A DNA stretch of 64,000 nt. It comes from an uncultured Acidobacteriota bacterium. GTDB lineage: Bacteria > Acidobacteriota > Vicinamibacteria > Vicinamibacterales > SCN-69-37. The notes under the pieces are model-generated. The model saw only the letters and a list, made by a program, of their open reading frames with translations. It was not told the DNA's origin and did not search any database. This document shows, in pieces, positions 9,581 through 28,220 of the stretch (the stretch's first letter is position 1; each line of letters begins with the position of its first letter). The stretch lies in assembly GCA_963816795.1 (NCBI GenBank), contig CAWFLT010000003.1, positions 210,202-274,201 of the forward strand, read 5' to 3'. Both the position numbers and the translations under genes were made by a program.

Positions 9581-11798
9581 TTACCACCGATACACAACGC
9601 CGAACATCGTCGAGTGGGCGGTGTAGGGCCGATACACGTAGCCCATGACCAGCGAACTCGGCTGCACGATGCCGTTGACCACGCTCGGGTCGAACGCGAA
9701 GTCGTAGATGCTCAGCGGCTCGTACAGGTACGAGAACGACGCGGTGAGGCGGCTGGAGAGCCGGTACCGCACGTCGAGGTGCAACTGCTGCAGCTTGTTG
9801 AACACGTTGGGCAGCTGATTGGGCGCCGGGATGGGGCTGCCCACCGGGATGGTGTAGAGGTAGTTCCCCTCTGCGTGGCTGAAGTCGTACGAGAACCGGA
9901 TTTCAGTGTTCTGCCCGATGCGTGGAGGGCTGGCGTAGATCGAGAAGTAGTGCACCGTCTCGGTCGAATCGGCGGTCCAGTCGCGCAGCGGATCGTTGAA
10001 CTGGGCCGTGGACGAATCCCCCTCGTGCGAGCGCTGCAGCCCGGCGTAGCGCTCGTAGTTGTAGCGTCCCGCCCGCGCCCAGGCCGTTCGGCCGCTGGAA
10101 ATCAGCCGCGAGCGAGAACGTACGGCCGCTGGAATCCTGCAGGCCGTAGAAGCTGTTGCTGAATTCGTCCTTGAGGATGCCGGTGCGACACGCTGAACGT
10201 CCAGGCGTCGGACGGCACGATGTCGGCCTGGACCGTGAAGCGATTCCTCGTCCGATCGGCGAGGTCGTAGTGGCGCATCTCGGGATGCTCGCCAATGTCC
10301 GTCAGCAGCGTTTCGTCGAGCCCTGAACCGGTGCGATCGCCGAACTCGTATTGCGTCCGGAACGTGAGCCACGAGGTTCCGACGGCATCGGCCGACACGC
10401 GGAACACGTTCTCGCCGCTCGACTCGACGATCCGCGCATCGTAGCCGTTCCCGTTGTGCGAGTAGCCGAACGTGAGCGCGAACGGCATCAGCTTCGTCCA
10501 GGTGGCGTCGCCGTCGAAGGTCGTCCGGCTGTGCGCGTAGAGGTCCGGACCGCCCGTGGGCGTCGTCGACACGTTCCCGTCGTAGGCGACGTACTGCGTG
10601 ATGCTCGTCGCCGGCATGTGGTTGGCGTAGGTGTAATTGCGGAAGCGCGCGCCGAACCGCCAGTCGGTCGTGCGCGACGTCAGATTCAGGTTCGTCGAGA
10701 ACACGTGCGCCTTGGCGTCGGCGTTGGCGCGCGGCAGCGCGATCGGCGCGACCGTCGAATTGATGGTGAACGGCTCCAGCGGCTCGTCGTTGCTCCACAC
10801 TCCGTAGGAGAAGGAGCCAGTCACCTGGGTCCTTTGCGCCAGCTTGGTGTACCCGCCGAAGCTGATGGTCTGCGCCGAGTTCGACGGCCAGAGGGACATG
10901 CGTCCGCGTCCGGAGTTGCCAGCGACGTCGTCGAGGCGGAGCGGGCTGTCCCAGACCAGCGTCGGCGCGAGGTTGTCGAACCACGACCCGCTGTAGGCGA
11001 CGCGCAGCATGTTGCGCGGGTTCGTCCACTCGGTGCCGATGGTGAAGTCGTTCGCGCGCGACTCGTAGGGAAGGGCCACCTCGACGTCGTTGCTGAACCC
11101 GAAGCTGGCTCCCCACGGCAGCTCGCCGCCGTGTTTCTGCGTGATGAAGCTGGCCGTGACGTCGAGGTTCGTCTTCGGCGTCGCGACCACATCGACGCGA
11201 CCGATGTCGCGCCGCTCGTGCAGCTCGAACTGCGGCGCGAGCGGGACGTAGGCGTTGAGATTGGCCTGGCCGTTCTGGATCGCGCGCTGCGTCGCGTCGT
11301 CGAGCACCAGCGTGCCGCCGCTGCCCGTATAGGGCGTCATCGTGTCGACGCTGTAGAACTGCGGGATCTGCTGGAAGCTCCCGGTGACCGACAGCTTCCC
11401 AACACGGTTGTAGTTGGCGAAGTACTCCTGATCGCGCCAGCCCAGGTTGTTCGCGCGCGCGTCGAAGGTGTAGGCGCCGGCGGGCTGCGCGAACGCATAG
11501 CGGAAGCCGGAGAAGAGCAGCCCGTCGCGGACGTCCTGGTAGCGCTGAAAGCGCGCCGGGTCGCCGTCGATACTGGTGGCGCGGCCGCCGATGAAGAGCT
11601 CCCGGTCGGTCAGCGCGAACAGGCTGCGCGCGTATCCTCGGCCGCGGTCGGGCGCGCGGGGCTGGCGGCCGGCGTCGGCGCTGCCGGTTGTGCCGGCTTC
11701 TGCGTCGGCGGCGGCGCTCCCGCCTGGGCCAGCGCCCGCTCCGGCGCGGCGGCGGCGCCAACGAAAAGGATCAGCGCAATGAACGAGAGGCGTCGCAT
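9581..11798 (-). CDS. MtrB/PioB/MtoB-family outer-membrane porin; about 3 frame disruptions (~11625, ~10190, ~10085)
   Basis: The signal peptide ([25 protein letters not shown]), a middle 412-aa ORF (10102..11340, open further upstream) and the C-terminal part (...[16 protein letters not shown]...[18 protein letters not shown]) join colinearly. It is about 739 aa of beta-strand-rich sequence immediately downstream of a decahaem gene. Confidence 0.8.
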
Positions 11799-11811
11799 GA
11801 TCGTGTCTCCG

Positions 11812-12878
11812 TTACCGCATGTAGAACTGGCCGGACGGGTGGTTCGATCCGTGGACCATCGAGTGGCAGTTCACGCACGACCGTGCCGAACATCCGGTTG
11901 CTCTTGCTGACGGTGATCTGGTCCTTGTCGTAGAGCGTCGCCGGGTGCTTGCTCGCGATGTGGCAGCGCTGGCAGAGCATCGGCATGCGGACCACGAGCA
12001 TCCGGTCGTTGGAGGACCCGTGCGGGTCGTGGCACGTCGCGCAGTTCTCGCGCACCGGCGCGTGCTCGAAGAGCATCGGGCCGCGCATCTCGGTATGACA
12101 GCGTCGTGCACAGCTCGGCGACCGAGCTGCCCGTCTTGAGATTCTTGACGTTGGTGATCGAGCCGTGCGGGTTGTGGCACGAGCTGCAGGACATCTTTCC
12201 TTCGCGCACCGGCATGTGCGCGACGGCGCGTTCAGTCTTGGTCACCTGCAGTCGGTGGCACGTCGCGCAGACCTGCGTTTCGGTCGGCTTCACCAACTGC
12301 CGCTCCGGCGACTTCGGGCTGTGCACGCTGTGACACGTCGCGCACGACAGGTTGCGCCGCTCGTGCGCGCTGCCTTCCCAACCGGCGTGCACGCCGCGAT
12401 TGTGGCAGGAGAGACACGTCTCGTTGAGTTCCGCCGGCTTCAGCGCCTTGAGCTTCGCGATCTTCCCCTTGGCGTCGTCGTCGATGTGTGCCTGGCCCGG
12501 ACCATGGCAGTTCTCGCACCCGGTGCTGGCGACCGGCGCCCGTGGGTTCTTGGTGAGCCAATGTTGCGTGTTCTTTATACTGGCTTCCTGCTCAGCGTGG
12601 CACTCTATGCAGGCAGCGTTGCCGGCATAGCCGGTCTGCGGCGCCGTTGGCCGGGTGACGACCACTGTTGCTGGCGGCCCTTGTTTTGCTGGCGGCGCCT
12701 GGATCGGAGAGCTCGCGACGGAGGACTGCAGGCCGATGACCGCGCCCCACACCAAGGCCACCGTGCTGAAAAACAGTACGGTGCTGACCTTCAGTCGGCC
12801 GCGGTCGCGAGGGCGCATCAGGTTGAGTGCAAAGATAACATGTATTCCGGCTGCCAAACCCATTGCCCTAAAGGCCAA
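11812..12878 (-). CDS. MtrA/DmsE/PioA/MtoA-family periplasmic decahaem cytochrome c; 2 frame disruptions (~12101, ~11891)
   Basis: Ten haem motifs once joined: CIECH, CENCH, CLSCH, CATCH, CATCH, CSSCH, CTTCH (restored by removing one base at ~12101), CATCH, CQRCH, CVNCH. The start may instead be the internal MRPRDRG... at ~12818. Confidence 0.85.
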
Positions 12879-12921
12879 TTGCTTTTCTTATGAAGGCTGT
12901 GCTAAGCGCGCCGCTCCCTGC

Positions 12922-14511
12922 TCAACCAAGCAGCGCCGCGACGATCTGCACGAAGAGGATCTTCACGAGCACCATGGAAGGAAAGATCGTCGCGTAGCCG
13001 ATGTCGGGCCGCTCCGTCGGCACGGCACGGCTCGCGTAGGCCAGGATGGCGGGATTGCCGGTGGCGCCCGACACGATGCCGAACAGATCGCCGACAGGGA
13101 TCGACGAACAACCGTCCCACGATCATCGGGACCAGGACGAGCGCAAGAACGATCAGGGCGCCGAGCAAGACGAACGTCAATCCGGTCTCGGCAATCGTCG
13201 CGGCGAACGCGGGCCCGGAGGCCATCCCCACCTGGGCCAGGAACACGGTGAGCCCGAAGTTTCGCAGCACGAGGTTCGCCGACAACGGGAGCGTCCACAC
13301 GATGCCGGACGTCCGGCGGACCTTGCCGAGCACGAGGGCGACGAGCAGCACCGCGGCCAGCCCCAGCTTGATCGCGCCGACACCAGGGATCGGAAGCGGA
13401 ATCATCCCGACGAGCAGGCCGAGCGCGGCGCCGACGCCGATGGAGATGTAGCTGAAGTCGGCGGCGCCCTTGATGGAGTCGCCATAGAAGCTGCGCACCG
13501 CATCGAAATGCTCACGACCGCACAGCACGCCCACGCGATCGCCGAACTCGAGCACCAGGTCTTCGTCGGGCAGCAGATCGGTGTCGCCGCGGCGCACCTG
13601 CAAGTAGCGGTAGTCGAATCCGCCAGGAATCTTCAAGCGGCTGAGCGGCATCCCGACGACGCTGCGGCGGGACGCGTAGACGCGAACGTAGTCGAGATCG
13701 GTTCGGTCGGCCGCGACCTGGCCAGCCACGCCTTCGCCGATCAACGCGCGTGCGTTGTCGATCGCGGCGGGATCGGTCCCGACGATGAGGAGCACGTCGT
13801 TCGCCTCGAGTCGGGTCGCCGGCGTGGGCACGTGGTTCCGCTGCGCTCGACGGATGGCGACGACCTGGACGCCGCGCACCGAGGGTCCGCTGAAGCTCCG
13901 GGAGCGGCTTGCCGAACAACGCGGCGTTCTGCACGCTGACTTCGACCGGCTGGATCCGGCGGCCGGCTGGTGGCTCTATCTTCGGTTTGAAGATCGCCAG
14001 GTAGGCATACATGCACAGGATCGGCCCGGCGACGCCGAACGGATACGTGACGCCATAGCCGACCGCGGCCTCCTGGCTGTGCAGCGCATCGAGGACGGCC
14101 TGGAGCGCGGGCGTGTTCGTCCCGGAGCCCGCGAACATCCCGAGCGCCTGGGGCAGGCTCGCCGCGCCGGCCTGGAAGATCGCGATCGAGACCAGGCCCG
14201 CGGCGGCCACACCGCAGGAGCCCCGCGACATTGGCCTTCAACCCGTCGGCGCTGGTGAGGCCACGGTACCATTCGGCGCCGTATTGGATGCCCACGCAGT
14301 AGAGGAAGAGCATCAGGCCCAGGGTGCCCACCAGCCCTGGCGCCGTGGACTTCGGCGCGAAGGCGCCGAACGCGAGGCCGACGAAGAGCACCGCCCCCGA
14401 GCCGAGCGAAAACCCTTTGAGGTTGATTTCGCCGATCAGGTAGCCGGCCGCAATGGTCAGGAACAGCGCCGCGAGCGGCGAGGATTCGAGGAGTGCCCTG
14501 AGCCAGTCCAT
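12922..14511 (-). CDS. AAE-family (YidE/YbjL-like) transporter with central TrkA_C/RCK_C domains; 3 frame disruptions (~14225, ~13880, ~13095)
   Basis: N-terminus MDWLRALLESSPLAALFLTIAAGYLIGEINLKGFSLGSGAVLFVGL. Central RCK_C-like region (VQVVAIRR...LEANDVLLIVG; LQVRRGD...LVLEFGDRVGVL). C-terminus ...GDLFGIVSGATGNPAILAYA...VQIVAALLG* is recovered by hand translation. Confidence 0.8.
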
Positions 14512-14538
14512 GCGCGCTCTCCTGCTCCTCGGGCGCGG

Positions 14539-15546
14539 CTACTGAACGAGCTTGCCGGGCAGATATCCGGTGTTCGCCGCCACGTACTGGGCGCGCAGAA
14601 GCGCGGCGACGTCCTCGACGTGCGTCGCGTCCTTGAGACCGCGAATCGCGTCGACCGAGTCGAAGCCGTTGGCGGCGAGCCAGCGGGCGAGCCCGTCGGT
14701 CATCGTCGCGATGTGCTCCGGTCCGTGCCGGAGCAACGCCGAGGTCGTCATTACGACATCGGCGCCGACGAGCAGGTACTTCACGACCTCGACCTCCGTC
14801 TCGACGCCCCGGCTGCCCGCGAGCGAACACCCGAGGCGGCGCGACAAGAGGGCGATCCACACGAGCGAGAGCGGCAGTTCGGCGGCCGTCGACAACGGGA
14901 GCGAGCTCGTCACTCGAAGCGTCTTGAGGTCGATGTCGGGGGCATAGAAGCGGTTGAACAAGACGAGTCCGTCCGCGCCGGCTCGCACCAGCTCGGCCGC
15001 CATATGCGGCAGCGAGCTGAAGTAGGGCGCGAGCTTGACGGCGATCGGAAGGCGCACATTTGAGTCGACCTCCCGAATGATCTCCAGAGAGCGCTGTTCC
15101 ACCTCGGCGCCGCTGACGGCGGGATTGACCGGGAGCGAGTAGACGTTGAGCTCGATCGCCGCGGCCCCCGCCTGTTCGAACGCGCGCGCGTGCTCGATCC
15201 ATCCCTCGGAGGTCGTGCCGTTGAGGCTGGCGATCACCGGGATGTCGAGCGCTTCCGACGCACGGCGCAGCGTCTCGAGATACCCGGACACCCCGCCGTC
15301 ATAGTCGGGAAGCTCAGGGAAATACGAGCCGGTCTCGGCCTGACTGTTCGAGCCGTGCTCGGTATACCGGGCATACGCGTCGTCCTCCGCCCTGATCTGC
15401 TCCTCGTAGAGCGAGAACATCACGACGGCGGCGGCGCCGGCATCCTCCAGACGCCGCATGCCGTCGACCGTCGCGGTGAGCGGCGACGCCGACGCCACGA
15501 TCGGATGCGCGAGCTGAAGGCCGAGATAGCGTGTGGCGAGCGTCAT
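14539..15546 (-). CDS. dihydroorotate dehydrogenase-like (class 1 DHOD / dihydropyrimidine dehydrogenase PreA-like) FMN protein
   Basis: MTLATRYLGLQLAHPIVASASPLT...IELNVYSLP...LPIAVKLAP...GADGLVLFNRF is a DHOD-type TIM-barrel pattern. The ATG overlaps the nifJ stop (ATGA at 15543-15546). The ORF upstream of this ATG lies inside nifJ and is discounted. Confidence 0.85.
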   Translation of the reverse strand: MTLATRYLGLQLAHPIVASASPLTATVDGMRRLEDAGAAAVVMFSLYEEQIRAEDDAYARYTEHGSNSQAETGSYFPELPDYDGGVSGYLETLRRASEALDIPVIASLNGTTSEGWIEHARAFEQAGAAAIELNVYSLPVNPAVSGAEVEQRSLEIIREVDSNVRLPIAVKLAPYFSSLPHMAAELVRAGADGLVLFNRFYAPDIDLKTLRVTSSLPLSTAAELPLSLVWIALLSRRLGCSLAGSRGVETEVEVVKYLLVGADVVMTTSALLRHGPEHIATMTDGLARWLAANGFDSVDAIRGLKDATHVEDVAALLRAQYVAANTGYLPGKLVQ

Positions 15547-18500
15547 GACGGCACGTCCTGCCAGTGCGGGTGGAACCGGCTGCCGTCGCGCGCGGCCAGA
15601 TCCTCGTACACACGGTAGCGCTCCTCGAGCGCGAGTTGCGCCTGTTGGAGCATGCGCTTCGCGGCGTCCGGGTGCGTCTGCGTGAGCGACTTGAAGCGGA
15701 CCTCGTTGTAGCGGTACTCCTCGAGCGGAATGCGTGGCCGCGGCGAGTCGAGCCGGAACGGGTTCATCCCTCGCCCGCGCATCGTCGGGTCGTAGCGGAA
15801 CAGCGGCCAGTACCCCGAGGCGACGGCGCGCGCCGCCTGCTTCATGCCGTGGCGCATGTCGATGCCGTGGGCGATGCACTGCGAGTACGCCAGGATCAGG
15901 GACGATCCCGAGAACGCCTCAGCCTCCCGCATGGCGACGAGCGCCTGCTCGTTGTTGGCGCCCATGGCGATTTGGGCGACGTAGACGTTGCCGTAGGTGA
16001 TCGCCATCAGCGCCAGGTCCTTGCGCGGCGTCGTCTTGCCCGCGGCGGCGAACTTGGCGGATGCGCCGAGCGGCGTCGCCTTCGACGCCTGGCCGCCGGT
16101 GTTCGAGTAGACTTCGGTGTCCAGCACCAGGATGTTCACGTCCTTCCCAGCGGAGAGGACGTGGTCGAGGCCGCCGTAGTCGATGTCGTAGGCCCAGCCG
16201 TCGCCGCCGACAATCCACACCGATCGCCGCACCAGGAAGTCCGCCAGGGCCAGCAGATTCGCCGCCTCCTGGTCGGTCGATCCCGCGAGCTTCGCCTTCA
16301 CCGCGGCCACGCGCTCGCGCTGCACGCGGAAGTCCGACTCGGTCACCTGCGGCGCCTGGAGCACGGCCGTCACGAGCGCCTCACCCACACGCGGCGCCAG
16401 CTTCTGGAGCAGGACGCGAGCCTGCGCGGTCTGGCTGTCGACGGCGAGGCGATAGCCGAGGCCGAACTCGGCGTTGTCCTCGAACAGCGAGTTCGACCAC
16501 GCCGGTCCGCGGCCCTCGGCGTTGGCCGCCCACGGCGTCGTCGGCAGGTTCGCGCCGTAGATCGACGAGCAGCCCGTCGCGTTGGCGATCTGCAGCCGAT
16601 CGCCGAAGAGCTGCGACATCATCTTGAGATACGGCGTCTCGCCGCACCCGGCGCAGGCGCCCGAGAACTCGAACAGCGGCTCCAGGAACTGGACGCCGCG
16701 CACGTTGGCGAAATTGACCCGGGTGCGGTCGGCCCACGGAAGCGTCTCGAAGAAACTGACGCTCTCGCGGCCGGCCTCGAGGTGCTCGAGCCGGTCTTTC
16801 ATGTTGATCGCCTTGATGGCGGCGTCGACCGGGCTGTGCGCAGGACAGTTCTCCACGCAGACCCCGCACCCCGTGCAGTCTTCGACATACACCTGCAGCG
16901 TGAAGCGCGACTCGGGATAGCCGCGGGCGTTGATCGGCGCCGCCTTGAAGCTGATCGGCGCGCCCGCGAGACGGTCCTCGTCGTAGTACTTGGCCCGAAT
17001 CACGCTGTGAGGACAGACGATCGCGCACTGGCCGCACTGGATGCAGAGGTCCGATTCCCAGACCGGCACCTCGTCCGCGATGTTCCGCTTCTCGTAGCGA
17101 GCCGTTCCCGTGGGGTACGTGCCGTCCACCGGAAGCGCACTCACGGGAAGCGTGTCCCCGCGCAGCCCGAGGATCGTCGCGGTCACGTTCTGCACGAACT
17201 CGGGCGCCGACTCGGGCACGAGCGTCAGCCGGATGCGCTTGCCGGCCACCTTCGCCGGGACGCGCACCTCGTGCAGGTTCGCCAGCGCGCTGTCGATCGC
17301 GGCGAAGTTCTTCTGGACGATCTCCTTGCCCTTCTTCGCGTACGTGCGTTCCGTCGCCTTCTTGATCGCCTCGATGGCCGTGTCACGAGGCATCACGCCG
17401 GACAGCGCAAAGAAGCACGTCTGCAGGATCGTGTTGACACGCGATCCCAGGCCGAGTCCGGCGGCCACGCCGGACGCATCGATGACGTGGACCTTGAGCC
17501 CCTTGTCGATCACTTGCTTCTGCACTTCACGCGGCAGCTCGGTCCAGACGTCATCTGGCGCGTACGGGCTGTTGATCAGCACGGTCGCGCCCGGCGCGGC
17601 GGCCGCGAGCGTGTCGAGTTTGTAGAGGAAGTCGAACTTGTGGATGCCGACGAAGCTCGCCGACTTCAGCAGATACGGCGCCCGAATCGGTCGCGGGCCG
17701 AAGCGCAGGTGCGAGATCGTGTAGGAGCCTGACTTCTTCGAATCGTAGACGAAATAGCCCTGGGCATAGCGGTTCGGGTCCGCGGCCAGGATCTTCGTGG
17801 AGTTCTTGTTCGCGCCGACCGTGCCGTCGGCGCCGAGCCCGAAGAACAACGCCCGGACGACCTCCGGCGGCTCGATGTCGAAGCTCGAATCGACCGTGAG
17901 GCTGGTGTGCGTCACATCGTCGTTGATTCCGACGGTGAAACCTCGCTTCGGGTCAGGCTTCTTCAACTCGTCGAAGACCGCCTTCGCCATGGCTGGATCG
18001 AAATCCTTCGAAGACAAACCGTACCGTCCGCCGATGATCACGGGCATCGACTGGATGCGTCCGGCGGCGAGCGCTTCGGCAAATGTGGTGACGACGTCGA
18101 GATACAGCGGCTCACCGGGTCCGCCGGACTCCTTGGTTCGGTCGAGTACGGCGATCCCGCTGACGGTCGTCGGCAGCGCCGCACGAAAGCGTTCCGCGTC
18201 CCAGGGCCGGTAGAGCGCCACGTGGAGCACGCCGACCTTTTCGTCGTGCGCGTTCAGCCAGGCCGCGGTCTCGTCGAGCACCTCGACGGCCGAGCCGATC
18301 ACGATGACGACGCGATCCGCCTCGGGATGGCCGCTGTAGCGGAACAGATGGTACGGCCGGCCCGTGAGCTCGCCGACGCGATCCATCGCCCGCTGCACGA
18401 TCTCGGGCATGCGGGCGTAGTAGGGGTTCGAGGCTTCGCGGGCCTGGAAGAACGTGTCGGGGTTGTGTGCGGTGCCTCGGATGACCGGCCGCTCCGGCGT

Positions 18501-19124
18501 GAGCCCGCGCGCCCGGTGAGCGCGCACCAGCTCGTCGTCGATCGCGGCCCGGATCTGCTCGTCCGGAATCAGGCTGATCTTGCTCTCTTCGTGCGACGTC
18601 CGGAACCCGTCGAAGAAGAACATCACCGGCACGCGCGCTTCGAGCGTGGCCACCTGCGCCACGAGCGCCAGATCGTGCGCCTCCTGTACGGACGACGCGG
18701 CCAGCATCCCCCAGCCGACCATCCGCGCGCTCATCACGTCCGAGTGGTCGCCGAAGATCGACAGGGCCTGCGTCGCGATCGCTCTCGCCGCGATATGGAA
18801 GACGCAGGCGGTGAGCTCGCCCGCAATCTTGTACATGTTGGGGAGCATGAGCAGCAATCCCTGCGAGGCGGTGAAGGTCGTGGTGAGGGCGCCGCTCTGG
18901 AGCGCGCCGTGCACAGCGCCGGCCGCGCCTCCTTCCGATTGCATCTGCTGGATGGACGGCACCTGCCCCCAGATGTTCTTGATCCCCTGCGCCGCCCAGG
19001 CGTCGGCCAGCTCCGCCATCGTGGACGACGGCGTGATCGGGAAGATCGCGAAGACCTCGTTGACGCGGTAGGCAATATGGGCGGCCGCGGTATTGCCGTC
19101 CATGACGACCGACTTAGGGGGCAT
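15543..19124 (-). CDS. nifJ: pyruvate:ferredoxin (flavodoxin) oxidoreductase, single-polypeptide type
   Basis: 1193-aa intact ORF starting MDGNTAAAHIAYRVNEVFAIFPITPSS. Two ferredoxin-type clusters (CIQCGQCAIVCP, CTGCGVCVENCP). TPP-binding region GGDGWAYDIDYGGLDH. Confidence 0.97.
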   Translation of the reverse strand: MPPKSVVMDGNTAAAHIAYRVNEVFAIFPITPSSTMAELADAWAAQGIKNIWGQVPSIQQMQSEGGAAGAVHGALQSGALTTTFTASQGLLLMLPNMYKIAGELTACVFHIAARAIATQALSIFGDHSDVMSARMVGWGMLAASSVQEAHDLALVAQVATLEARVPVMFFFDGFRTSHEESKISLIPDEQIRAAIDDELVRAHRARGLTPERPVIRGTAHNPDTFFQAREASNPYYARMPEIVQRAMDRVGELTGRPYHLFRYSGHPEADRVVIVIGSAVEVLDETAAWLNAHDEKVGVLHVALYRPWDAERFRAALPTTVSGIAVLDRTKESGGPGEPLYLDVVTTFAEALAAGRIQSMPVIIGGRYGLSSKDFDPAMAKAVFDELKKPDPKRGFTVGINDDVTHTSLTVDSSFDIEPPEVVRALFFGLGADGTVGANKNSTKILAADPNRYAQGYFVYDSKKSGSYTISHLRFGPRPIRAPYLLKSASFVGIHKFDFLYKLDTLAAAAPGATVLINSPYAPDDVWTELPREVQKQVIDKGLKVHVIDASGVAAGLGLGSRVNTILQTCFFALSGVMPRDTAIEAIKKATERTYAKKGKEIVQKNFAAIDSALANLHEVRVPAKVAGKRIRLTLVPESAPEFVQNVTATILGLRGDTLPVSALPVDGTYPTGTARYEKRNIADEVPVWESDLCIQCGQCAIVCPHSVIRAKYYDEDRLAGAPISFKAAPINARGYPESRFTLQVYVEDCTGCGVCVENCPAHSPVDAAIKAINMKDRLEHLEAGRESVSFFETLPWADRTRVNFANVRGVQFLEPLFEFSGACAGCGETPYLKMMSQLFGDRLQIANATGCSSIYGANLPTTPWAANAEGRGPAWSNSLFEDNAEFGLGYRLAVDSQTAQARVLLQKLAPRVGEALVTAVLQAPQVTESDFRVQRERVAAVKAKLAGSTDQEAANLLALADFLVRRSVWIVGGDGWAYDIDYGGLDHVLSAGKDVNILVLDTEVYSNTGGQASKATPLGASAKFAAAGKTTPRKDLALMAITYGNVYVAQIAMGANNEQALVAMREAEAFSGSSLILAYSQCIAHGIDMRHGMKQAARAVASGYWPLFRYDPTMRGRGMNPFRLDSPRPRIPLEEYRYNEVRFKSLTQTHPDAAKRMLQQAQLALEERYRVYEDLAARDGSRFHPHWQDVPS

Positions 19125-19141
19125 GGGTCCTCGTTTCGGAC

Positions 19142-19196
19142 GGAGGGGCCGGCTTCAGCCGGCCCGGCAAATGGGCGGGCTGAAGCCCGCTCCTCC
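19142..19196 (-). other. nested GC-rich stem-loops in the gltD-like/nifJ intercistronic spacer
   Basis: GGGCCGGC-TTCA-GCCGGCCC (19146-19165) and GCGGGC-TGAA-GCCCGC (19175-19190) are bracketed by GGAGG...CCTCC (19142-19146/19192-19196). All lie within the 89-nt gap. Confidence 0.5.
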
Positions 19197-19213
19197 ATCG
19201 GGCTTTTGAACGC

Positions 19214-20902
19214 CTACGCTCGGACCGTAAACCGGGCAGGCACCCGCTCCGCCCGACGCTCGTCGAGCGGCGCGTCGGCGGCCGGCTCGGGCGTCATCTC
19301 GATGGCGTGGCAGGGGCACTGTTCGAAGCACACGGCACAGCCGGTGCAGAGATCGAGCTCGACCCGGTAGAACCGGCCCTTCCCGAGCTTGACGATCGCC
19401 TGCTCGGGACAGGCCGCATAGCAGTTGTCGCACTCGAAGCAATTGCCGCAGGAGAGGCAGCGCGTGGCTTCGTACCGCGCCTCGGGCTCCGAGAGGCCGC
19501 TCACGATCTCTTCGAAGCCGGTGCGCTTCGCGATCGGCAGCTCCGGATGCTCGCGCCGGCCGGCATCGAGAAACACGGTCAGATTCAGCTGCTCGTACGG
19601 GATCGGCGGATGCTGCGGTGGCTTCTGGTAGACGCCGCCGCGCAGCCACGCATCGATGTGGCGCGCCGCCTTCTTGCCGTGCCCGACGGCCTCCGTCATC
19701 GTCCGCGAACCGCCGATCATGTCGCCGCCCGCGAAAATCCCGTCGGCGGCCTGCATCCGTTGGTCCACTTCGACGAGCTTGCCGGGTCCGATGCGGAGGT
19801 CGGGCACCTTCTTCAGGAACTCGAGGTCGGCGTGCTGTCCGACCGCCAGCACCAGCGAATCGGTCTTGAGCGTCTGGAACTGCCCGGTGCCGACGCAGCC
19901 CGACCCGTCGGGCAGCATCTCCATCTGCTCGACGACGATTTCGTCTTCGCCGAACTGCTTGACCGTGGACAGCCACTTGATCTTGACGCCCTCGGCGAAG
20001 GCTTCCATCGCTTCGTACGGATGGGCTTCCATCTGCGCCTTGTCGAAGCGGAAGATGATCACCGCCTCTTCCGCGCCGAGCCGCTTCGCCACGCGCGCGG
20101 CGTCCATCGCGGTATTGCCGCCGCCCACGATGCCGACGACGCGCCCGAGGGCCGGGGCGCGCCCCTGCTCCACCCGTTCCAACAGCGTCACGGCATCGAT
20201 GATCTTGCCGCCGTCCATCGCCGGGATATCCAGGTGGTTGGCCACCTGGGCGCCAATCGCCAGGAACACGGCGTCGAACGAGCCCGCGGCCTTCTCGGCC
20301 AGCACGTCGTTCACGCGCGAATTCCGGACGATCTTGACGCCCATCGCCTCGATGCGCGCGATTTCCGTGTCGAGTCCCTCACGCGGCAGGCGGTACGCCG
20401 GAATCCCGTAGTGCATCATGCCGCCCGGCTCGGGGTTCGCATCGCGGATCTCGACGTCGTGTCCGAAGCGTCGCAACTGGTACGCGCACGACAGTCCGGC
20501 CGGTCCGGCGCCGACCACGAGCACTCGCTTGCCGGTGGGCGGGCCGGCCGCGACCGTCCAGCCTTTCTCGTTGGCGAGATCACCGAGAAACCGGTCGAGC
20601 GAATGGATGGAGACCGGCTGATCGAGGAACTTCCGGTTGCAGGCGCTTTCGCACGGGTGATAACACGCGCGGCCATGCGTGCCTGGCAGCGGGTTCTCCT
20701 CCATGTACTTCTGCCAGGCGCGCTCGTAGTCACCGGCCTGCGCCAGGTCCAGCCACGCCTGGATGTTTTCCCCGGCGGGGCACGCGTGATTGCAGGGCGG
20801 GAGATGATCGACGAAGGCGGCGCGCTGCCATCGGCGCGCACCAGCGCCCTGGCCAATCGTGGCCTTGTACGTCGGCGTCAGATCCTTCGGAGTGAGGCTC
20901 AC
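19214..20902 (-). CDS. GltD-like (glutamate synthase small-subunit family) NAD(P)H flavoprotein with C-terminal 2x[4Fe-4S] ferredoxin domain
   Basis: N-terminal Cys cluster (PPCNHACPAGENI...CYHPCESACNR). Dinucleotide folds (VLVVGAGPAGLSCAY, VGIVGGGNTAMDAAR). C-terminal CLSCGNCFECDNCYAACP and CTGCAVCFEQCPCHAI. Confidence 0.9.
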   Translation of the reverse strand: MSLTPKDLTPTYKATIGQGAGARRWQRAAFVDHLPPCNHACPAGENIQAWLDLAQAGDYERAWQKYMEENPLPGTHGRACYHPCESACNRKFLDQPVSIHSLDRFLGDLANEKGWTVAAGPPTGKRVLVVGAGPAGLSCAYQLRRFGHDVEIRDANPEPGGMMHYGIPAYRLPREGLDTEIARIEAMGVKIVRNSRVNDVLAEKAAGSFDAVFLAIGAQVANHLDIPAMDGGKIIDAVTLLERVEQGRAPALGRVVGIVGGGNTAMDAARVAKRLGAEEAVIIFRFDKAQMEAHPYEAMEAFAEGVKIKWLSTVKQFGEDEIVVEQMEMLPDGSGCVGTGQFQTLKTDSLVLAVGQHADLEFLKKVPDLRIGPGKLVEVDQRMQAADGIFAGGDMIGGSRTMTEAVGHGKKAARHIDAWLRGGVYQKPPQHPPIPYEQLNLTVFLDAGRREHPELPIAKRTGFEEIVSGLSEPEARYEATRCLSCGNCFECDNCYAACPEQAIVKLGKGRFYRVELDLCTGCAVCFEQCPCHAIEMTPEPAADAPLDERRAERVPARFTVRA

Positions 20903-21027
20903 GGCTCGCCCTCAGCGCTGGCTCGTCATCGCGCTCATCCTGACAGTGGGTAGAGTTATCCTACGAAACGCACAGCCGGTACGTCTATCGCCCTTTGGTG
21001 CAAGAGACCACACGCGTGCTCCGCTCC

Positions 21028-21041
21028 TGCACCAAGGTGCA
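21028..21041. promoter_or_regulatory. palindromic operator candidate TGCACC-AA-GGTGCA
   Basis: Perfect 6+6 inverted repeat in the divergent gltD-like/pta-like intergenic region. A further GGTGCAA half-site sits at 20997-21003, and a near-identical site at 32546-32561. Confidence 0.4.
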
Positions 21042-21049
21042 ATAGACGC

Positions 21050-21066
21050 CTCGTCCATTGGACGAG
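21050..21066. promoter_or_regulatory. 17-bp perfect palindrome CTCGTCCA-T-TGGACGAG
   Basis: 8-bp arms read directly from the sequence, 45 nt upstream of the ATG at 21111. Confidence 0.35.
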
Positions 21067-21110
21067 CCCACAGTTCAGCTGACGGAGCGGCGGCGACACG
21101 CCGGAGGCCC

Positions 21111-22045
21111 ATGAATCAACAGACCGGAACCGGCAAGTACGAACAGGTGCTGGAGCGGTGCAGCCGCGCTCGAGCCCGTGGTCACGGCGGTGGCGCACCC
21201 CTGCGAGGCCTCCGCGCTGGCCGGGGCGGTCGACGCCGGCGACGAAGGGGTTGATCACGCCGATTCTGGTCGGCCCCGTCGACAAGATCAAGGAGGTCGC
21301 TGAGAAAAGCGGCATCGATCTCGGCCAGATCCGCATCGTGGATGCGCCTCACAGCCACGCGTCGGCGGCGAAGGCCGTGGAGCTGGTTCGTAAGGGCGAG
21401 GCCGAGCTGTTGATGAAAGGCAGCCTGCACACGGACGAGCTGCTCAGTGCGGTCGTGGCGAAGGAGACGGGCCTGCGCACGGGCCGTCGCATCAGCCACG
21501 TGTTCATCATGGATGTGCCGACCTATCACAAGGTCCTGCTCATCACCGACGCCGCGATTACGATCGCACCGACGCTCGAGGACAAAGTCCACATCTGCCA
21601 GAACGCCATCGACCTCGCGGTGTCGCTCGGCGTCGAGCGGCCGAAGGTCGCGATCCTGGCCGCTGTCGAAACCGTCACGTCCAAGATGCCGTCCACCATC
21701 GACGCGGCGGCGCTGTGCAAGATGGCCGACCGCCGGCAGATCACCGGCGGTATCCTGGATGGCCCGCTGGCCTTCGACAATGCGATCAGCAAGGAGGCTG
21801 CGGCCATCAAGGGCATCCGATCGGAGGTCGCGGGCGACCCCGACATCCTGCTCGCCCCCGATCTCGAAGCGGGCAACATGCTCGCCAAGCAGCTCAGCTT
21901 CCTGGCCAACGCCGACAGTGCCGGTCTCGTGCTCGGCGCCCGGGTGCCGATCATCCTGACGAGCCGCGCCGACAGCGTCCGCTCGCGGATCGCGAGCTCG
22001 GCCGTCGCGGTGCTCGCCGCACATGCGCGGCGGAAGCAGCTTTAG
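21111..22045 (+). CDS. phosphate acetyl/butyryl-transferase family (PTA_PTB) enzyme; 2 frame disruptions (~21165, ~21243)
   Basis: GGAGG then ATG 21111 (MNQQTGTGKYEQVLERC). The middle frame reads EPVVTAVAHPCEASALAGAVDAGDEG, then LITPILVGPVDKIKEVAEK...GSLHTDELL...PDLEAGNMLAKQ. The second shift is an extra G in a GGGG run. Confidence 0.85.
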
Positions 22046-22859
22046 ACGCGCGGACCAGCAGCCGGCTACCGACCGCCGCACGGGCGGAGTAACGCTCCGG
22101 CACGAATTTCCTTCGAGCGATCGAAGCCTCGTCGTTGTACTTGTGTTTCGACGACCGTTTCGCGAGCTTCACCTTCGTCGGCGGCAGCTTCTTGTAGGGA
22201 ATCAGCGACAGCAGATGGGCGATCACGTTCAGGCGTGCGCTTCGCTTGTCGTCCGACCGCACGATGTTCCAGGGCGCGCGGCGCGTGTCGGTGGCTTTCA
22301 GCATCATGTCGCGTGCGCGCGAGTACTCGTACCACTTCGACCGCGATGGCAGATCCATCGGGCTCAGTTTCCACTGCCGCACCGGGTCGTCGATCCGCGC
22401 TTCGAAGCGCCGCTTCTGCTCGTCGTTGCCCACCTCGAGCCAGAACTTGATCAGGATGATCCCGCCGTCGACCATGTACCGTTCGATTTCCGGGCAGAGC
22501 TGCAGGAATCGCTTGTGCTCCTGTGGTGTGCAGAAGCCCATCACGTACTCGACGCCGGCGCGGTTGTACCAACTCCGATCGAAGATGACGACTTCGCCTG
22601 CCGCGGGAAAGTGCTGCATGTACCGCTGCATGTAAACCTGGGTCTTCTCCCGTTCGGTCGGCGCCGGCAGCGCCACCACCCTGAAGATCCGCGGGCTCAG
22701 CCGCTCGGTGAGCGCGCGAATCGTCCCGCCCTTGCCGGCCCCGTCGCGCCCCTCGAACACCACGACGACCCGGAGGCCTTTTTCGGTGACCCACCGCTGG
22801 AGATGGCAGAGGCGTACCTGGAGCGCGCTCAGCAACTTCTCGTACTTGGCTCGTTTCAT
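21951..22859 (-). CDS. ppk2: polyphosphate kinase 2
   Basis: MKRAKYEKLLSALQVRLCHLQRWV...VVVFEGRDGAGKGGTIRAL (Walker A)...IFDRSWYNRAGVE...FWLEVGNDEQKRRF. The basic 50-aa tail overlaps the pta-like 3' end, so the true stop is uncertain. Confidence 0.88.
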   Translation of the reverse strand: MKRAKYEKLLSALQVRLCHLQRWVTEKGLRVVVVFEGRDGAGKGGTIRALTERLSPRIFRVVALPAPTEREKTQVYMQRYMQHFPAAGEVVIFDRSWYNRAGVEYVMGFCTPQEHKRFLQLCPEIERYMVDGGIILIKFWLEVGNDEQKRRFEARIDDPVRQWKLSPMDLPSRSKWYEYSRARDMMLKATDTRRAPWNIVRSDDKRSARLNVIAHLLSLIPYKKLPPTKVKLAKRSSKHKYNDEASIARRKFVPERYSARAAVGSRLLVRASKAASAAHVRRAPRRPSSRSASGRCRRGSSG

Positions 22860-22994
22860 CGGTCGCCCATCCTCTTCCTCACTGCGCGTGGGGCCCCACT
22901 TCATTATGCGCTCGCGCTCGACCGCTTCGCGGCCGCTCGGCTCGCGGCGCTTGCTTGTCCTGAGCTTGTCGAGGGCTCGCTCGGCCGCGGGCGC

Positions 22995-23321
22995 TCAGTT
23001 CAACACGTCTTGACGGACCTCTGCCACGTAATCGAGACCACGCGTGGCCGTCACGAAGTCGAACTGCACGCGCGGGGGCTCGTGCGCCGATTCCAGGATC
23101 GCCAGCAGCGACGTGAACCGGTTCGAGCGGACATGACGGACGGTGTCCGCGTCGGTCGCCCATTCTTCCACGTAGTGCACCGTCCCGTCCGGATCGGTCC
23201 ACGCCCAGCAGCCCAGGCACCCCGGTTCCAGACGGGTGCCGACGATGAGGAACCGGAAACCCTCGAGGAGGTCCTGAGTGGAGCGCGCGGACGCCCGGAT
23301 CGCGACGTTGAGCCGCACCAT
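22995..23321 (-). CDS. antibiotic-biosynthesis-monooxygenase (ABM/dimeric alpha-beta barrel) family protein
   Basis: 108 aa. RLEPGCLGCWAWTDPDGTVHYVEEWATDADTVRHVRSNRFTSLL fits the ABM-domain pattern. Confidence 0.65.
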   Translation of the reverse strand: MVRLNVAIRASARSTQDLLEGFRFLIVGTRLEPGCLGCWAWTDPDGTVHYVEEWATDADTVRHVRSNRFTSLLAILESAHEPPRVQFDFVTATRGLDYVAEVRQDVLN

Positions 23322-23559
23322 GCCACATCAGATAGCACTTGGCGTTCCACCCCGTTCCGGCGCGGCAGAGGCCGAACGCTCTGAGGTCGGACGCGACCGC
23401 CACGGATTCGAACTCCGGCATCGCGGAGCCCGCCCGGAATACCGGAGATGCGTCGCTGCCCGGTCTTCGTCAATCCGAGCCAATTGGCTCATCCGTGCGG
23501 CAGGCGTCACCGTGCGGCGCGTGGCACGTGTCGTGCTGTTCACGACGCCATCGGACGTC

Positions 23560-25370: not shown

Positions 25371-25825
25371 GACACAGCAAGCGGATCGGCAAGAGCGCGC
25401 GGCAATTGTTCCGCCTGTGTCTCGCCGACGGCCGCCTGGACACCCAGCGGGCCCAGCGGGTCGCGCAGCATCTCGTCTCCTCCGGCCGCCGCCGCGGGCT
25501 GAGCGTCCTCAGCGCCTTCGAACGTCTGGTGAGGCTGTACCGCGACCGGCATGCGGCGGTCGTCGAGAGCGCAGTGCCGCTGAGCGAAGACGCGCGGGTC
25601 GAAGTCCTGGCCAGCCTCGCGCGCATCTACGGGCCCGGGCTCGAGGCATCGTTCGAAGACAATCCGGCGCTCATCGGCGGGATGCGGATCAAAGTCGGCA
25701 GCGACGTGTACGACGGCAGCGTGCAGGCCAAACTGGCCCGCCTTCGCCAAGGCTTCGGCGAGGCAGGCGCGCTGGCGCTGGAGGCGGCGGCACGGCGTGA
25801 GGATGAGAACCACTGTCATGGCTGA
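25367..25825 (+). CDS. atpH: F0F1 ATP synthase subunit delta (short form)
   Basis: ATGA overlap with atpF. C-terminal OSCP-like ...[25 protein letters not shown]. Lies between b and alpha. Confidence 0.75.
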
Positions 25826-27360
25826 CTTGGTACGGGAAATCGAAGCGCAGATTGCGGGCGCCAGAGCGGCGGCGGCAAAGCAGACCGTCGGGATCATCCG
25901 CGAGATTGGCGACGGCGTCGCCAAGGTCGAGGGGCTGGCCGATGTGATGCTGAACGAGATGCTCGACTTCGGCCGCGGCATCACGGGCCTCGCGCTCAAC
26001 CTCGAAGAGACCGAAGTCGGCGTCATCATCCTCGGCGACTACACGCAGCTCCAGGAGGGTGACGAGGTCAAAGCGACCGGAAAGCTGCTGCAGGTGCCGG
26101 TCGGCAAGGGCTTGCTCGGCCGCGTGGTCAACACACTCGGTGAACCGATTGACGGGAAGGGCCCGATTGCCAGCACCGAGGCCTATCCCGTCGAAAAACT
26201 CGCGCCGGGCATCATGCGGCGCCGTCCAGTCGGCCAGCCGGTGCAGACCGGCATCATGGCGATCGACGCGATGATCCCGATCGGGCGCGGCCAGCGCGAG
26301 CTGATCATCGGGGACCGTTCCACGGGCAAGACGACGATCTGTATCGACACGATGATCAGTCAGGCGCAGCTCAACAAGGCGGCGGAGGCCGCCGGCGATA
26401 CCACGCATCGCCCGCTCTATTCCATTTACGTCGCGATCGGCCAGAAGCAATCGACCGTCGCCCGGATCGTCTCGGCGCTCGAAGAGGCCGGCGCATTGCC
26501 GTACTCCATCATCGTCGCCGCGCCCGCCTCGGATCCCGCCGCGAGCCAGTATCTGGCGCCGTTTGCCGGGGCGGCGATGGGCGAATGGTTCATGGACCAT
26601 GGCATGGACGCGTTGATCGTGTACGACGACCTCTCCAAGCACGCGGTCGCGTATCGCCAGGTCTCGCTCGTACTCAAGCGGCCGTCAGGTCGCGAGGCCT
26701 ATCCGGGGGATGTGTTCTACCTGCACAGCCGGCTGCTCGAGCGCGCGGCGCGCGTCGGCGAACAGTACGGCGACGGTTCGCTCACCGCCCTGCCGATCAT
26801 CGAGACCCAGGCGGGAGACGTGTCCGCGTACATTCCCACGAACGTCATTTCGATCACGGACGGGCAGATCTTTCTCGAGACCGATCTGTTCTACCAGGGG
26901 ATTCGCCCGGCCATCTCGGTCGGGATCTCGGTGTCGCGCGTCGGGTCGGCCGCGCAGATCAAGGCCATGAAGCAGGTGGCCGGGCAGCTCAAGGGCGATC
27001 TCGCGCAGTTTCGCGAGCTGGCGGCCTTCGCGCAGTTCGGGTCCGATCTGGATGCCGGCGACGCAGGCGAAGATCGATCGCGGCAAGCGGATCGTCGAGA
27101 TCTTCAAGCAGCCGCAGTACCGCCCGATTCCCGTGGAGGTCCAGGTGGCGGTGATCTGGGCCGTGCAGAACGGGTACATGGACGACGTCCCGGTGGAACG
27201 AATCAAGGAGTTCCAGGCCGGGTGGACAGACTTCCTGACCACGCGCAAGGCCGAGCTGCTCGGCACGGTCGCGACAGAACGCACGTTGAGCACGGAGCTG
27301 ACGGCGACGCTCAAGGCGTCGGCCGATCAGTTCAAGCAGACCTGGAAAGCGTCGAAATGA
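25818..27360 (+). CDS. atpA: F0F1 ATP synthase subunit alpha; 1 frame disruption (~27057)
   Basis: GDRSTGKTT (Walker A), [30 protein letters not shown]. After SDLDA the frame moves +1 to [21 protein letters not shown]...KASK*. The shift is an extra G in GCCGGCG. The 807-aa ORF fusing alpha to gamma is an artefact of this shift. Confidence 0.93.
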
Positions 27361-28220
27361 GCAGTCCTCGCGACCTGCGCCGGCGCATCAAGTCGATCCG
27401 CGGGACGGCGCAGATTACGCGCGCGATGCAGATGGTGGCGGCGTCGAAGATGCGCAAGGCTCAGCAGGCCGCCATTGCCGCCGGGCCGTTCGCGCGCAAT
27501 TTGTATCGCATCCAGCGGAGCGCCACGCTCCGGGCGCCCGACCTCACGCACCCGCTGCTCACCGTGCGCCCGGTCCGCCGGCGCGCGGTCATTCTGATCG
27601 CGGCCGACAAAGGCCTGTGCGGCGCGCTCAACACCAATGTGTTTCGCCTCGCGAGCGAGTTCGATCCGAAATCGACGACCTTCGTGACCGCCGGCCGCAA
27701 GGCCGCGCAGTTCGTCGCGCGCACGCGGCGGCAGCTGGCGGCGGAGTTCGCCTACGGAGATACCCCGGGGTTTGGCGAGGCCCGGGCCATCGCGGCGTTC
27801 GCCCGGGATCTGTTCCTCAAGGAAGAAGTCGACCAGGTCCAGGTCGTGGCGACACGTTTCATCAACACGCTCACGCAGACCCCGGTGTTGATCGAGTACC
27901 TGCCGGTCGGCGCCATCACCTCGCTGAAGATGCCAGGGGTGGAAGGCGGCGAGGTCCCAGGCGACACCGAAGAGACGCTCTTCGAGCCCGGCGCCAGGGC
28001 GCTCATGGGCTATCTGCTCGGCCACTATCTCAACATCCTGATCTACTACGTGCTGCTCAATGCCAAGGCGAGCGAGCAGAGCGCGCGCATGGTGTCCATG
28101 AAGAACGCCACCGACAGTGCCGAGAGCCTGATCGCGGACCTCTCGCTCGAATACAACAAGCTCCGGCAGGACAACATCACGAAGGAACTGCTCGAGATCG
28201 CCGGCGGCCAGGCAGGGTGA
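27357..28220 (+). CDS. atpG: F0F1 ATP synthase subunit gamma
   Basis: ATGA overlap with atp[37 protein letters not shown]...[14 protein letters not shown]. Confidence 0.9.

Follow-up and report, generated by a model that had tools for sequence, protein, structure and literature searches.

Pyruvate:ferredoxin oxidoreductase (PFOR) is among the best-studied enzymes of anaerobic metabolism. Here we examined a PFOR gene and its neighbors in a 64,000-nucleotide stretch of DNA (the window) from an uncultured Acidobacteriota bacterium. The window lies on contig CAWFLT010000003.1 (contig C3) of assembly GCA_963816795.1, which comprises 5.85 Mb in 22 contigs and is 84.5% complete. Its GC content is ~67% and its closest relatives are soil metagenome-assembled genomes labelled Vicinamibacterales/Acidobacteriota. 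The minus strand carries three intact, co-directional genes that we call the trio. These encode an iron-sulfur flavoprotein resembling GltD and NfnB (the GltD-like protein), a nifJ-type PFOR, and a flavin mononucleotide (FMN) protein resembling dihydroorotate dehydrogenase (DHOD; the DHOD-like protein) (Table 1). The stop codon of nifJ overlaps the start codon of the DHOD-like gene as ATGA (sequence read: ...CCG TCA TGA CGC...). A preliminary description of this DNA had noted this gene order and overlap, and the open reading frames, domains and direct reading of the sequence bear it out. The same description called the region free of frame shifts. This holds for the trio, where all three frames are unbroken across the full profile length, but neighboring genes in the window are broken.

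The spacer between the GltD-like gene and nifJ contains two GC hairpins inside GGAGG...CCTCC, lacks a T-run, and has GAGG 5 nucleotides ahead of the nifJ ATG. We read it as a putative intercistronic structure and not a terminator, and an intrinsic-terminator scan found no terminator-like site within it. Across positions 12500-21400, scans for sigma-70 promoters and intrinsic terminators returned nothing exceeding shuffled expectation. The window sequence occurs in soil DNA metagenomes only; the number of RNA runs containing it was zero. The three genes, possibly four with a transporter gene located downstream, probably make up one operon around an ordinary PFOR.

Domains and conserved residues of the three proteins

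The PFOR is a single chain that contains, in order, the Pfam domains POR_N, POR, EKR, 2x[4Fe-4S], and TPP_enzyme_C. It matches TIGR02176 with 1707 bits (equivalog cut-off 911) over positions 3-1166 of the 1167 in the profile. The translation contains the cluster cysteine motifs CIQCGQCAIVCP, CTGCGVCVENCP, and GACAGCGE / ATGCSS / SQCIAHG, which we take to correspond to three [4Fe-4S] clusters by analogy with the PFOR of Desulfovibrio africanus. The protein stops at residue 1193 with no C-terminal domain VII or any additional domain, and it is the sole PFOR of the assembly.

The GltD-like protein is comprised of a Fer4_20 domain (residues 35-114), a Pyr_redox_2 domain (126-409), and a C-terminal 4Fe-4S dicluster (487-536), and both FAD and NAD(P)H Rossmann folds are present. 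It matches NF009410/PRK12771 with 703 bits (cut-off 516), residues 19-539 aligning with profile positions 32-565 of 566. Its N-terminal cysteine cluster had been taken as an extra feature; it is instead the standard Fer4_20 domain of every GltD, NfnB, and dihydropyrimidine dehydrogenase (DPD) protein. Among 81 PRK12771 sequences (the window protein and 80 relatives) 16 cysteines are conserved, five N-terminal and 11 C-terminal. Fifteen of these are invariant (Cys37, 41, 80, 84, 88, 482, 485, 488, 491, 494, 498, 519, 522, 525, and 529) and one, Cys531, is nearly so. Thus, the cysteine complement is sufficient for four [4Fe-4S] clusters. The C-terminal dicluster domain of this family is PorD-like; in the PRK12771 protein of Noviherbaspirillum denitrificans (locus L169) this domain exceeds the PorD_KorD cut-off (64.5 vs. 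60).

The nearest solved relatives of the GltD-like protein are the NfnB-like modules 9bov, 8oh5, and 9n5u and the NfnB structures 5jca and 4ylf (phmmer E-values of 1e-57 to 1e-89). No gene for an NfnA (PyrK-like FAD/[2Fe-2S]) partner is found in the operon, where the neighbors are the genes for PFOR, the DHOD-like protein, a PTA_PTB family protein, and the transporter. In the second Rossmann fold, NfnB relatives and members of the family linked to PorA/PorB genes have the motif YRR(T/S/N)R, and the fourth position of this motif is Asp in 54/57 PFOR-linked members. The window protein has FRFDK. Because the PFOR-linked pocket has this Asp, NADH and NADPH cannot be told apart from sequence and the cofactor is uncertain.

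The DHOD-like protein matches NF005741/PRK07565, 'dihydroorotate dehydrogenase-like protein', over its full length with 410 bits (cut-off 303) and falls under every pyrD equivalog cut-off. It carries PF01180 only; the 2x[4Fe-4S] domain sits on the GltD-like chain instead. Similarity to solved DHODs and DPD is remote (best phmmer E-value 4e-9). An AlphaFold2 model (pLDDT 88.5) searched with Foldseek returned class 1A DHOD and the FMN domain of DPD as nearest folds (TM-score ~0.7, ~20% identity), and this fold search found no closer solved relative. Members of the family are numerous, with 937 clusters at 50% identity (E<=1e-30), and among the 150 best representatives almost all are stand-alone proteins of ~335 amino acids.

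We aligned 58 diverse PFOR-linked DHOD-like proteins, using Lactococcus lactis DHODA and pig DPD for reference numbering. At the FMN site N134 (DHODA N127), K171 (K164), G247, and G261 are invariant and N198 (N193) is kept in 56/58. By contrast, the catalytic-base position (DHODA Cys130, DPD Cys671) is F, A, R, H, T, or L across the family, the Ser of the window protein being atypical. The position of Lys43 is P, A, S, H, T, or F, mostly Pro and never Lys. Two of the pyrimidine-binding Asn residues are also lost, with Pro or Ala at the N132 equivalent and a variable residue at the N67 equivalent. Other residues are conserved, S45, E49, W116, W230, W289, and R318 being invariant and R199 (57/58) and D204 nearly so. 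The DHOD-like protein is thus very probably a flavoprotein that, with its FMN site kept and the catalytic and pyrimidine-binding residues absent, is not a dihydroorotate or dihydropyrimidine dehydrogenase.

Conservation and independence of the two PFOR partners

Using the DHOD-like protein as query, we collected 80 loci from one-genome-per-species contigs. A PFOR gene is located immediately upstream and on the same strand in all 79 loci with room for one, the gap ranging from a 4-nucleotide overlap to ~120 nucleotides. These loci span Acidobacteriota, Proteobacteria, Myxococcota, Actinomycetota, Chloroflexota, and Planctomycetota. We also surveyed 201 evenly drawn Acidobacteriota genomes and found PFOR in 103 and PRK07565 in 87; 85 genomes have both, 2 have only the DHOD-like gene, and 18 have only PFOR (Fisher p=9e-36). 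The DHOD-like gene is directly downstream of PFOR for 71 of the 93 PRK07565 matches in this sample.

The GltD-like protein was used in the same way to retrieve the 80 closest PRK12771 family members and their loci. All 56 relatives with at least 55% identity have nifJ directly downstream, most of them followed by a DHOD-like gene. The 24 more distant members (52-55% identity; Streptomyces, Noviherbaspirillum, Marinobacter, and others; L167-L190) directly follow genes for PorA/PorB-type two-subunit 2-oxoacid:ferredoxin oxidoreductases (OFORs) in 22/24 loci, which are all those with upstream sequence available. The arrangement of the trio is far beyond chance. The preliminary description had allowed that the flanking genes might not stay beside nifJ in relatives; they are conserved there across Acidobacteriota, Alpha-, Beta-, and Gammaproteobacteria, Myxococcota, and Actinomycetota. 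We found the trio in Acetobacter, Gluconacetobacter, Mycobacterium, Bosea, and Novosphingobium.

These comparisons agree with the suggestion that the GltD-like protein serves PFOR as its dedicated NAD(P)(H) module, since the 80 closest members adjoin a PFOR or a PorA/PorB-type OFOR wherever the contig allows and the C-terminus is PorD-like. The protein most likely wires PFOR to NAD(P)(H), and members of its family appear to link 2-oxoacid oxidoreductases in general to NAD(P). The loci that combine PorA/PorB genes with PRK12771 likely encode a 2-oxoacid:NAD(P)+ oxidoreductase in aerobes such as Streptomyces. At the N. denitrificans locus (L169:5641-9614) the PRK12771 gene comes after genes for PorA-like and PorB-like proteins, and its product resembles a GltD-like::PorD fusion taking the place of the delta subunit of a four-subunit-type oxidoreductase.

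The two partners also occur independently of each other. No GltD-like gene was found within 10 kb in the DHOD-like loci of Actinomycetota, Chloroflexota, and Planctomycetota, and one Ilumatobacteraceae and one Pirellulales genome that carry the PFOR/DHOD-like pair have no PRK12771 member anywhere. Conversely, seven loci have the GltD-like gene and PFOR without a DHOD-like gene, and in five of those genomes PRK07565 is missing altogether. Micropruina and Nostocoides each hold a pair locus plus a full trio elsewhere in the genome. This independence suggests that PFOR, or more generally an OFOR, is a hub to which each flavoprotein is attached separately. It does not agree with the initial view of the flanking proteins as the two halves of a PreT/PreA pair, because each is found beside PFOR without the other and the DHOD-like protein has no catalytic base and only half of the residues that bind pyrimidines.

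In the tree of DHOD-like proteins, those from trio loci group in a single clade (SH-aLRT 99) drawn from four phyla, and PFOR trees show the same grouping. This suggests that the trio moves as a unit by horizontal transfer. Its distribution is patchy even inside Vicinamibacterales.

Neighboring genes and candidate regulation

Divergent from the trio is a gene for a phosphate acetyl/butyryl-transferase (PTA_PTB) that matches PF01515 with 155 bits and NF008852 with 474 bits (cut-off 413). Acetate kinase is encoded elsewhere in the genome, away from the trio. With PTA_PTB adjoining and acetate kinase elsewhere, the locus fits a route from pyruvate to acetyl-CoA, acetyl phosphate, and then acetate plus ATP. 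The preliminary description had proposed that the divergent PTA_PTB gene fits a route from pyruvate over acetyl-CoA to acyl-phosphate. In support of this, the gene recurs near the trio in several lineages, but it does so in only ~10% of loci. The first in-frame start of PTA_PTB is the GTG at 21158. The NCBIfam profile expects ~15 more N-terminal residues, and an ATG at 21111 is in another frame (21083-21160); the 5' end of the gene may contain a frameshift or a mis-set start.

The region between the trio and PTA_PTB contains a perfect palindrome, TGCACCAAGGTGCA (21028-21041), and a GGTGCAA half-site (20994-21006). Together these are a candidate operator for a shared regulator of the trio and PTA_PTB. 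A scan of this divergent region found no sigma-70 consensus.

The DHOD-like stop is followed after 27 nucleotides by the start of a gene for an AspT/YidE/YbjL-family transporter, which in this assembly is broken into two or more overlapping frames (13741-14511 and 12902-13879). We also found this transporter gene behind the DHOD-like gene in six loci from Vicinamibacterales, in one from an alphaproteobacterium (L033), and in one from Rubrivivax (L134). Transporters of this family include the succinate exporter SucE.

Table 1. Positions of the trio and adjoining features in the window
Feature	Position	Strand	Remarks
GltD/NfnB-like Fe-S flavoprotein (NCBIfam PRK12771 'NAD(P)-binding protein')	19214-20902	-	562 aa
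Spacer, GltD-like stop to nifJ start	19125-19213	-	89 nt, sequence read directly
Single-chain nifJ-type pyruvate:ferredoxin oxidoreductase	15543-19124	-	1193 aa, TIGR02176
DHOD-like FMN TIM-barrel protein (NCBIfam PRK07565)	14539-15546	-	335 aa, PF01180
AspT/YidE/YbjL-family transporter (Asp-Al_Ex + TrkA_C), possible fourth operon gene	12902-14511	-	frame-shifted in assembly
Divergent intergenic region, trio vs. PTA_PTB	20903-21157	.	candidate shared operator
Phosphate acetyl/butyryl-transferase (PTA_PTB)	21158-22045	+	PF01515, NF008852

The minus strand at 21951-23327, between PTA_PTB and the ATP synthase operon, carries genes for polyphosphate kinase 2 (PPK2, 317 bits) and a small ABM-domain protein. 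The 3' end of the PPK2 gene overlaps that of PTA_PTB by ~95 nucleotides. Other genes close to the trio are broken. An MtrB/PioB-like porin gene (9581-11811, minus strand) is broken into two open reading frames, and the ATP synthase alpha gene (25584-28220, plus strand) continues into gamma as one 878-amino-acid frame with a truncated alpha C-terminus. Such breaks would fit the indel errors that long-read assembly produces.

In Acidimicrobiia, the pair form has a different neighbor. A 902-amino-acid protein with GNAT, CoA-binding, and ATP-grasp domains that resembles ADP-forming acetyl-CoA synthetase / Pat is encoded upstream of the PFOR/DHOD-like pair in Ilumatobacteraceae (L064:3581-6289) and 11 similar loci. 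This arrangement suggests a module from pyruvate to acetyl-CoA and then acetate plus ATP.

A proposed PFOR hub and its alternatives

The explanation we favor, with a confidence somewhat better than even, is that PFOR is a hub with two independent accessory flavoproteins: the GltD-like protein, which would connect it to NAD(P)(H), and the DHOD-like protein as an FMN partner. The make-up of the genes, their conservation, the separate occurrence of the two partners, and the missing DHOD catalytic residues are observed; to these the explanation adds a putative physical complex, a direction of electron flow, a nucleotide specificity, and an acceptor for the FMN protein. Pyruvate would be decarboxylated at thiamine pyrophosphate, sending electrons along the three clusters of PFOR. 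The PorD-like di-cluster domain of the GltD-like protein would dock on PFOR and extend the cluster chain to FAD, with electrons passing from the PorD-like clusters to the N-terminal clusters, FAD, and NAD(P)+, or in the reverse direction. The net reaction would be pyruvate + CoA + NAD(P)+ -> acetyl-CoA + CO2 + NAD(P)H with no free ferredoxin, or its reverse. The DHOD-like protein is likely a separate, PFOR-specific partner whose FMN would take electrons, probably from the distal cluster of PFOR in the way that the FMN barrel of DPD is fed by the ferredoxin domain of that enzyme, and pass them to an acceptor.

Other oxidoreductases of this class are pyridine-nucleotide dependent. Pyruvate:NADP+ oxidoreductase (PNO) of Euglena and Cryptosporidium is a PFOR fused to a cytochrome-P450-reductase-type FMN/FAD domain that passes electrons to NADP+ with no free ferredoxin. 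The likeness to the trio is a functional analogy of the proposed reaction only, since the flavin domain of PNO is homologous to neither partner and the window proteins are separate. An added FAD subunit makes NADH-dependent phenylglyoxylate dehydrogenase, an OFOR, pyridine-nucleotide dependent, and the KorABC 2-oxoglutarate:NADP+ oxidoreductase of Azoarcus evansii is reportedly built in the same way. The PorA/PorB plus PRK12771 loci (L167-L190) would share this reported KorABC-type architecture. A literature search for korABC turned up unrelated four-subunit enzymes. Unlike the window proteins, both enzymes are said to have two-subunit OFOR cores, not a single-chain PFOR, and no DHOD-like partner.

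Several observations weigh against a PFOR hub of this kind. The nucleotide pocket of the GltD-like protein departs from that of NADPH-type relatives, changing from YRRTRE to FRFDK. The trio is a minority form, with the GltD-like gene directly upstream of PFOR in only 7/103 PFOR-bearing Acidobacteriota genomes, that of the window included, and most PFOR/DHOD-like pairs thus operate without it. About 20 of the 93 PRK07565 matches in the Acidobacteriota sample are not beside PFOR. At least one of these (G184, L239) is a break at a contig end, and others probably are as well. The window genome itself has a second PRK07565 gene (C10:76961-77968, minus strand; 433 bits, 45% identical to the window copy) with no adjoining PFOR. 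There are also no robust fusions between the partners. Among 5.8 billion proteins, a search restricted by length found just 20 PFOR/DHOD-like 'fusions'. All were singletons of ragged length that came from long-read contigs, and they are most likely long-read frameshifts. Single PFOR/DHOD-like frames in L001, L014, and L077 were likewise treated as assembly frameshifts and not as evidence.

The second PRK07565 copy (locus L221) ends a quinohemoprotein amine dehydrogenase (qhp) cluster that reaches ~C10:87771. The cluster includes an S8 peptidase, an ABC exporter, a radical-SAM QhpD read through from QhpA haem/domain II-IV, and an FAD monooxygenase resembling Trp halogenase. We considered this context as a clue to function and set it aside. 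None of 18 other Acidobacteriota copies that are not adjacent to PFOR has a qhp context, and it thus gives no general lead.

We weighed four other explanations of the locus. The proteins may be loosely linked with no complex, the GltD-like protein being a free ferredoxin:NAD(P)+ oxidoreductase that recycles PFOR-reduced ferredoxin and the DHOD-like protein a separate ferredoxin-dependent reductase, both co-expressed with PFOR through a shared pathway. Stand-alone NfnB-like proteins are active ferredoxin:NADP+ oxidoreductases that use free ferredoxin (PMC12221290), PFORs are promiscuous toward ferredoxin, flavodoxin, and rubredoxin (PMC13768988), and there are no stable PFOR fusions. The GltD-like protein has a homologous Fer4_20, FAD, and NAD(P)H module, and the job proposed for it is also the same, the exchange of electrons between low-potential Fe-S clusters and pyridine nucleotide. 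Unlike NfnAB and NfnB, it has no NfnA/PyrK-like partner, carries a C-terminal PorD-like di-cluster domain and a Thr to Asp change in the pocket, and has an OFOR gene as neighbor in every case. A stop/start overlap and a gene order that hardly varies from phylum to phylum, as seen here, are typical of subunits, and no ferredoxin gene accompanies the trio. The GltD-like protein has its own PorD-like domain, which at L169, a PorA/PorB locus, appears to stand in for delta, a bound subunit. We judge loose linkage to be unlikely. Another idea is that the flanking proteins are a true but rearranged dihydropyrimidine or dihydroorotate dehydrogenase of the PreT/PreA type, unrelated to PFOR. Together the two proteins do hold the full five-domain inventory of DPD (pig DPD; Escherichia coli PreT/PreA), that is, N-terminal Fe-S, FAD, NAD(P)H, FMN barrel, and 2x[4Fe-4S], and the fold search placed the FMN barrel of DPD among its top matches. 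However, the ferredoxin domain is on the GltD-like chain and not the FMN chain, and the DHOD-like family has no catalytic Cys (Cys671), never has Lys at the Lys43 position, and has lost the equivalents of N67 and N132. The two genes never adjoin, PFOR always lying between them, and each occurs without the other. The genome has a separate canonical pyrD-like match (C14), and the locus has no pyrimidine-catabolic context. This idea is effectively excluded.

The trio has counterparts in other bacteria, one of which led to a further proposal. The nifJ1 cluster of Propionibacterium contains genes for a 'glutamate synthase small chain-like' protein, PFOR, and 'dihydroorotate dehydrogenase' that are transcribed together and respond to the same regulation (McCubbin et al. 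2020, Genes 11:1115, PMC7650540). Knockout of nifJ1 severely impairs growth, and a ferredoxin/NAD(P)/quinol bifurcating complex was postulated without assays (PMC7650540). The window has the same three families in the same order, and we found the actinobacterial trio in Micropruina and Nostocoides. The window differs in being from another phylum and in adding the divergent PTA_PTB and the downstream AspT-type transporter. According to the proposal of McCubbin et al., one complex would carry out bifurcation or confurcation. The GltD/NfnB-like FAD would split or merge electron pairs between a low-potential branch at PFOR (pyruvate/acetyl-CoA + CO2) and a high-potential branch from the DHOD-like FMN to quinone, fumarate, or another acceptor, and NAD(P)(H) would be the third partner. 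In favor of this, NfnB, in which the FAD is a proven bifurcation site, is a homolog of the GltD-like protein, whose nearest relatives among solved structures are Nfn/Stn-type modules. The operon encodes all three redox arms, and the separate clade of trio DHOD-like proteins suggests co-adaptation with the GltD-like partner. On the other hand, both two-component versions, PFOR with the DHOD-like protein but no PRK12771 and the GltD-like protein with PFOR but no PRK07565, are common and complete, and because they occur alone a three-armed complex is not obligatory. The DHOD-like protein has no membrane or quinone-binding segment, and the transfer of electrons from pyruvate to NAD(P)+ is exergonic and needs no bifurcation. 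We consider bifurcation or confurcation quite improbable. One specific form, which we judge to be highly improbable, is a three-armed bifurcating PFOR complex in which NAD(P)H would be oxidized at the NfnB-like FAD, one electron going uphill through the Fe-S chain into PFOR to make pyruvate from acetyl-CoA and CO2 and the other through the DHOD-like FMN to a high-potential acceptor such as fumarate or quinone. If true, such a trio would let aerobic or facultative soil bacteria with no low-potential ferredoxin supply run pyruvate synthase, or the reverse confurcation.

The DHOD-like protein could also be a terminal soluble reductase of fumarate or another 2-enoate. In that case it would work with PFOR as a pyruvate:fumarate-type oxidoreductase, and the AspT/SucE-family transporter encoded downstream would export the product. 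In favor of this, its closest folds are class 1A DHODs, which use fumarate; N134, K171, and N198 are kept; and R199 and the invariant R318 could bind carboxylates. The transporter follows the DHOD-like gene in three separate lineages, but in a minority of loci only, and the Cys130 position holds no conserved proton donor. The probability of this explanation is very slim.

The pair form also has a described counterpart. In Synechocystis sp. PCC 6803, nifJ (sll0741), sll0743, and sll0744 ('DHOD') are one transcription unit, TU3296, that is transiently induced in dark microoxia (Kariyazono & Osanai 2024, PMC11368403). By the annotation of sll0744, this operon corresponds to the pair form dominant in Acidobacteriota and Actinomycetota. 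Unlike the window, it has no GltD-like gene and has an extra hypothetical gene in between. A Synechococcus elongatus control genome carries a PRK07565 member above the cut-off.

The window trio is a further member of a widespread operon type noticed earlier in the literature. Ferredoxin, flavodoxin, and rubredoxin are the only partners named in a November 2026 review of PFOR diversity, which does not mention dihydroorotate-dehydrogenase-like, glutamate-synthase-like, or flavoprotein partners (PMC13768988). New here are the independent association of the two partners with PFOR, the trio-specific clade of DHOD-like proteins, the PorD-like character of the C-terminal domain of the GltD-like protein, and the replacement of Thr by Asp in the nucleotide pocket of PFOR-linked members. 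The DHOD-like gene follows nifJ in most PFOR-bearing Acidobacteriota and is also found there in Actinomycetota, Chloroflexota, Planctomycetota, and Proteobacteria. Should the GltD-like protein render PFOR dependent on pyridine nucleotides, many aerobes would possess an unrecognized substitute for pyruvate dehydrogenase or a pyruvate synthase driven by NAD(P)H. This would change metabolic models of soil and wastewater bacteria and would make a ferredoxin-free PFOR module available for engineering.

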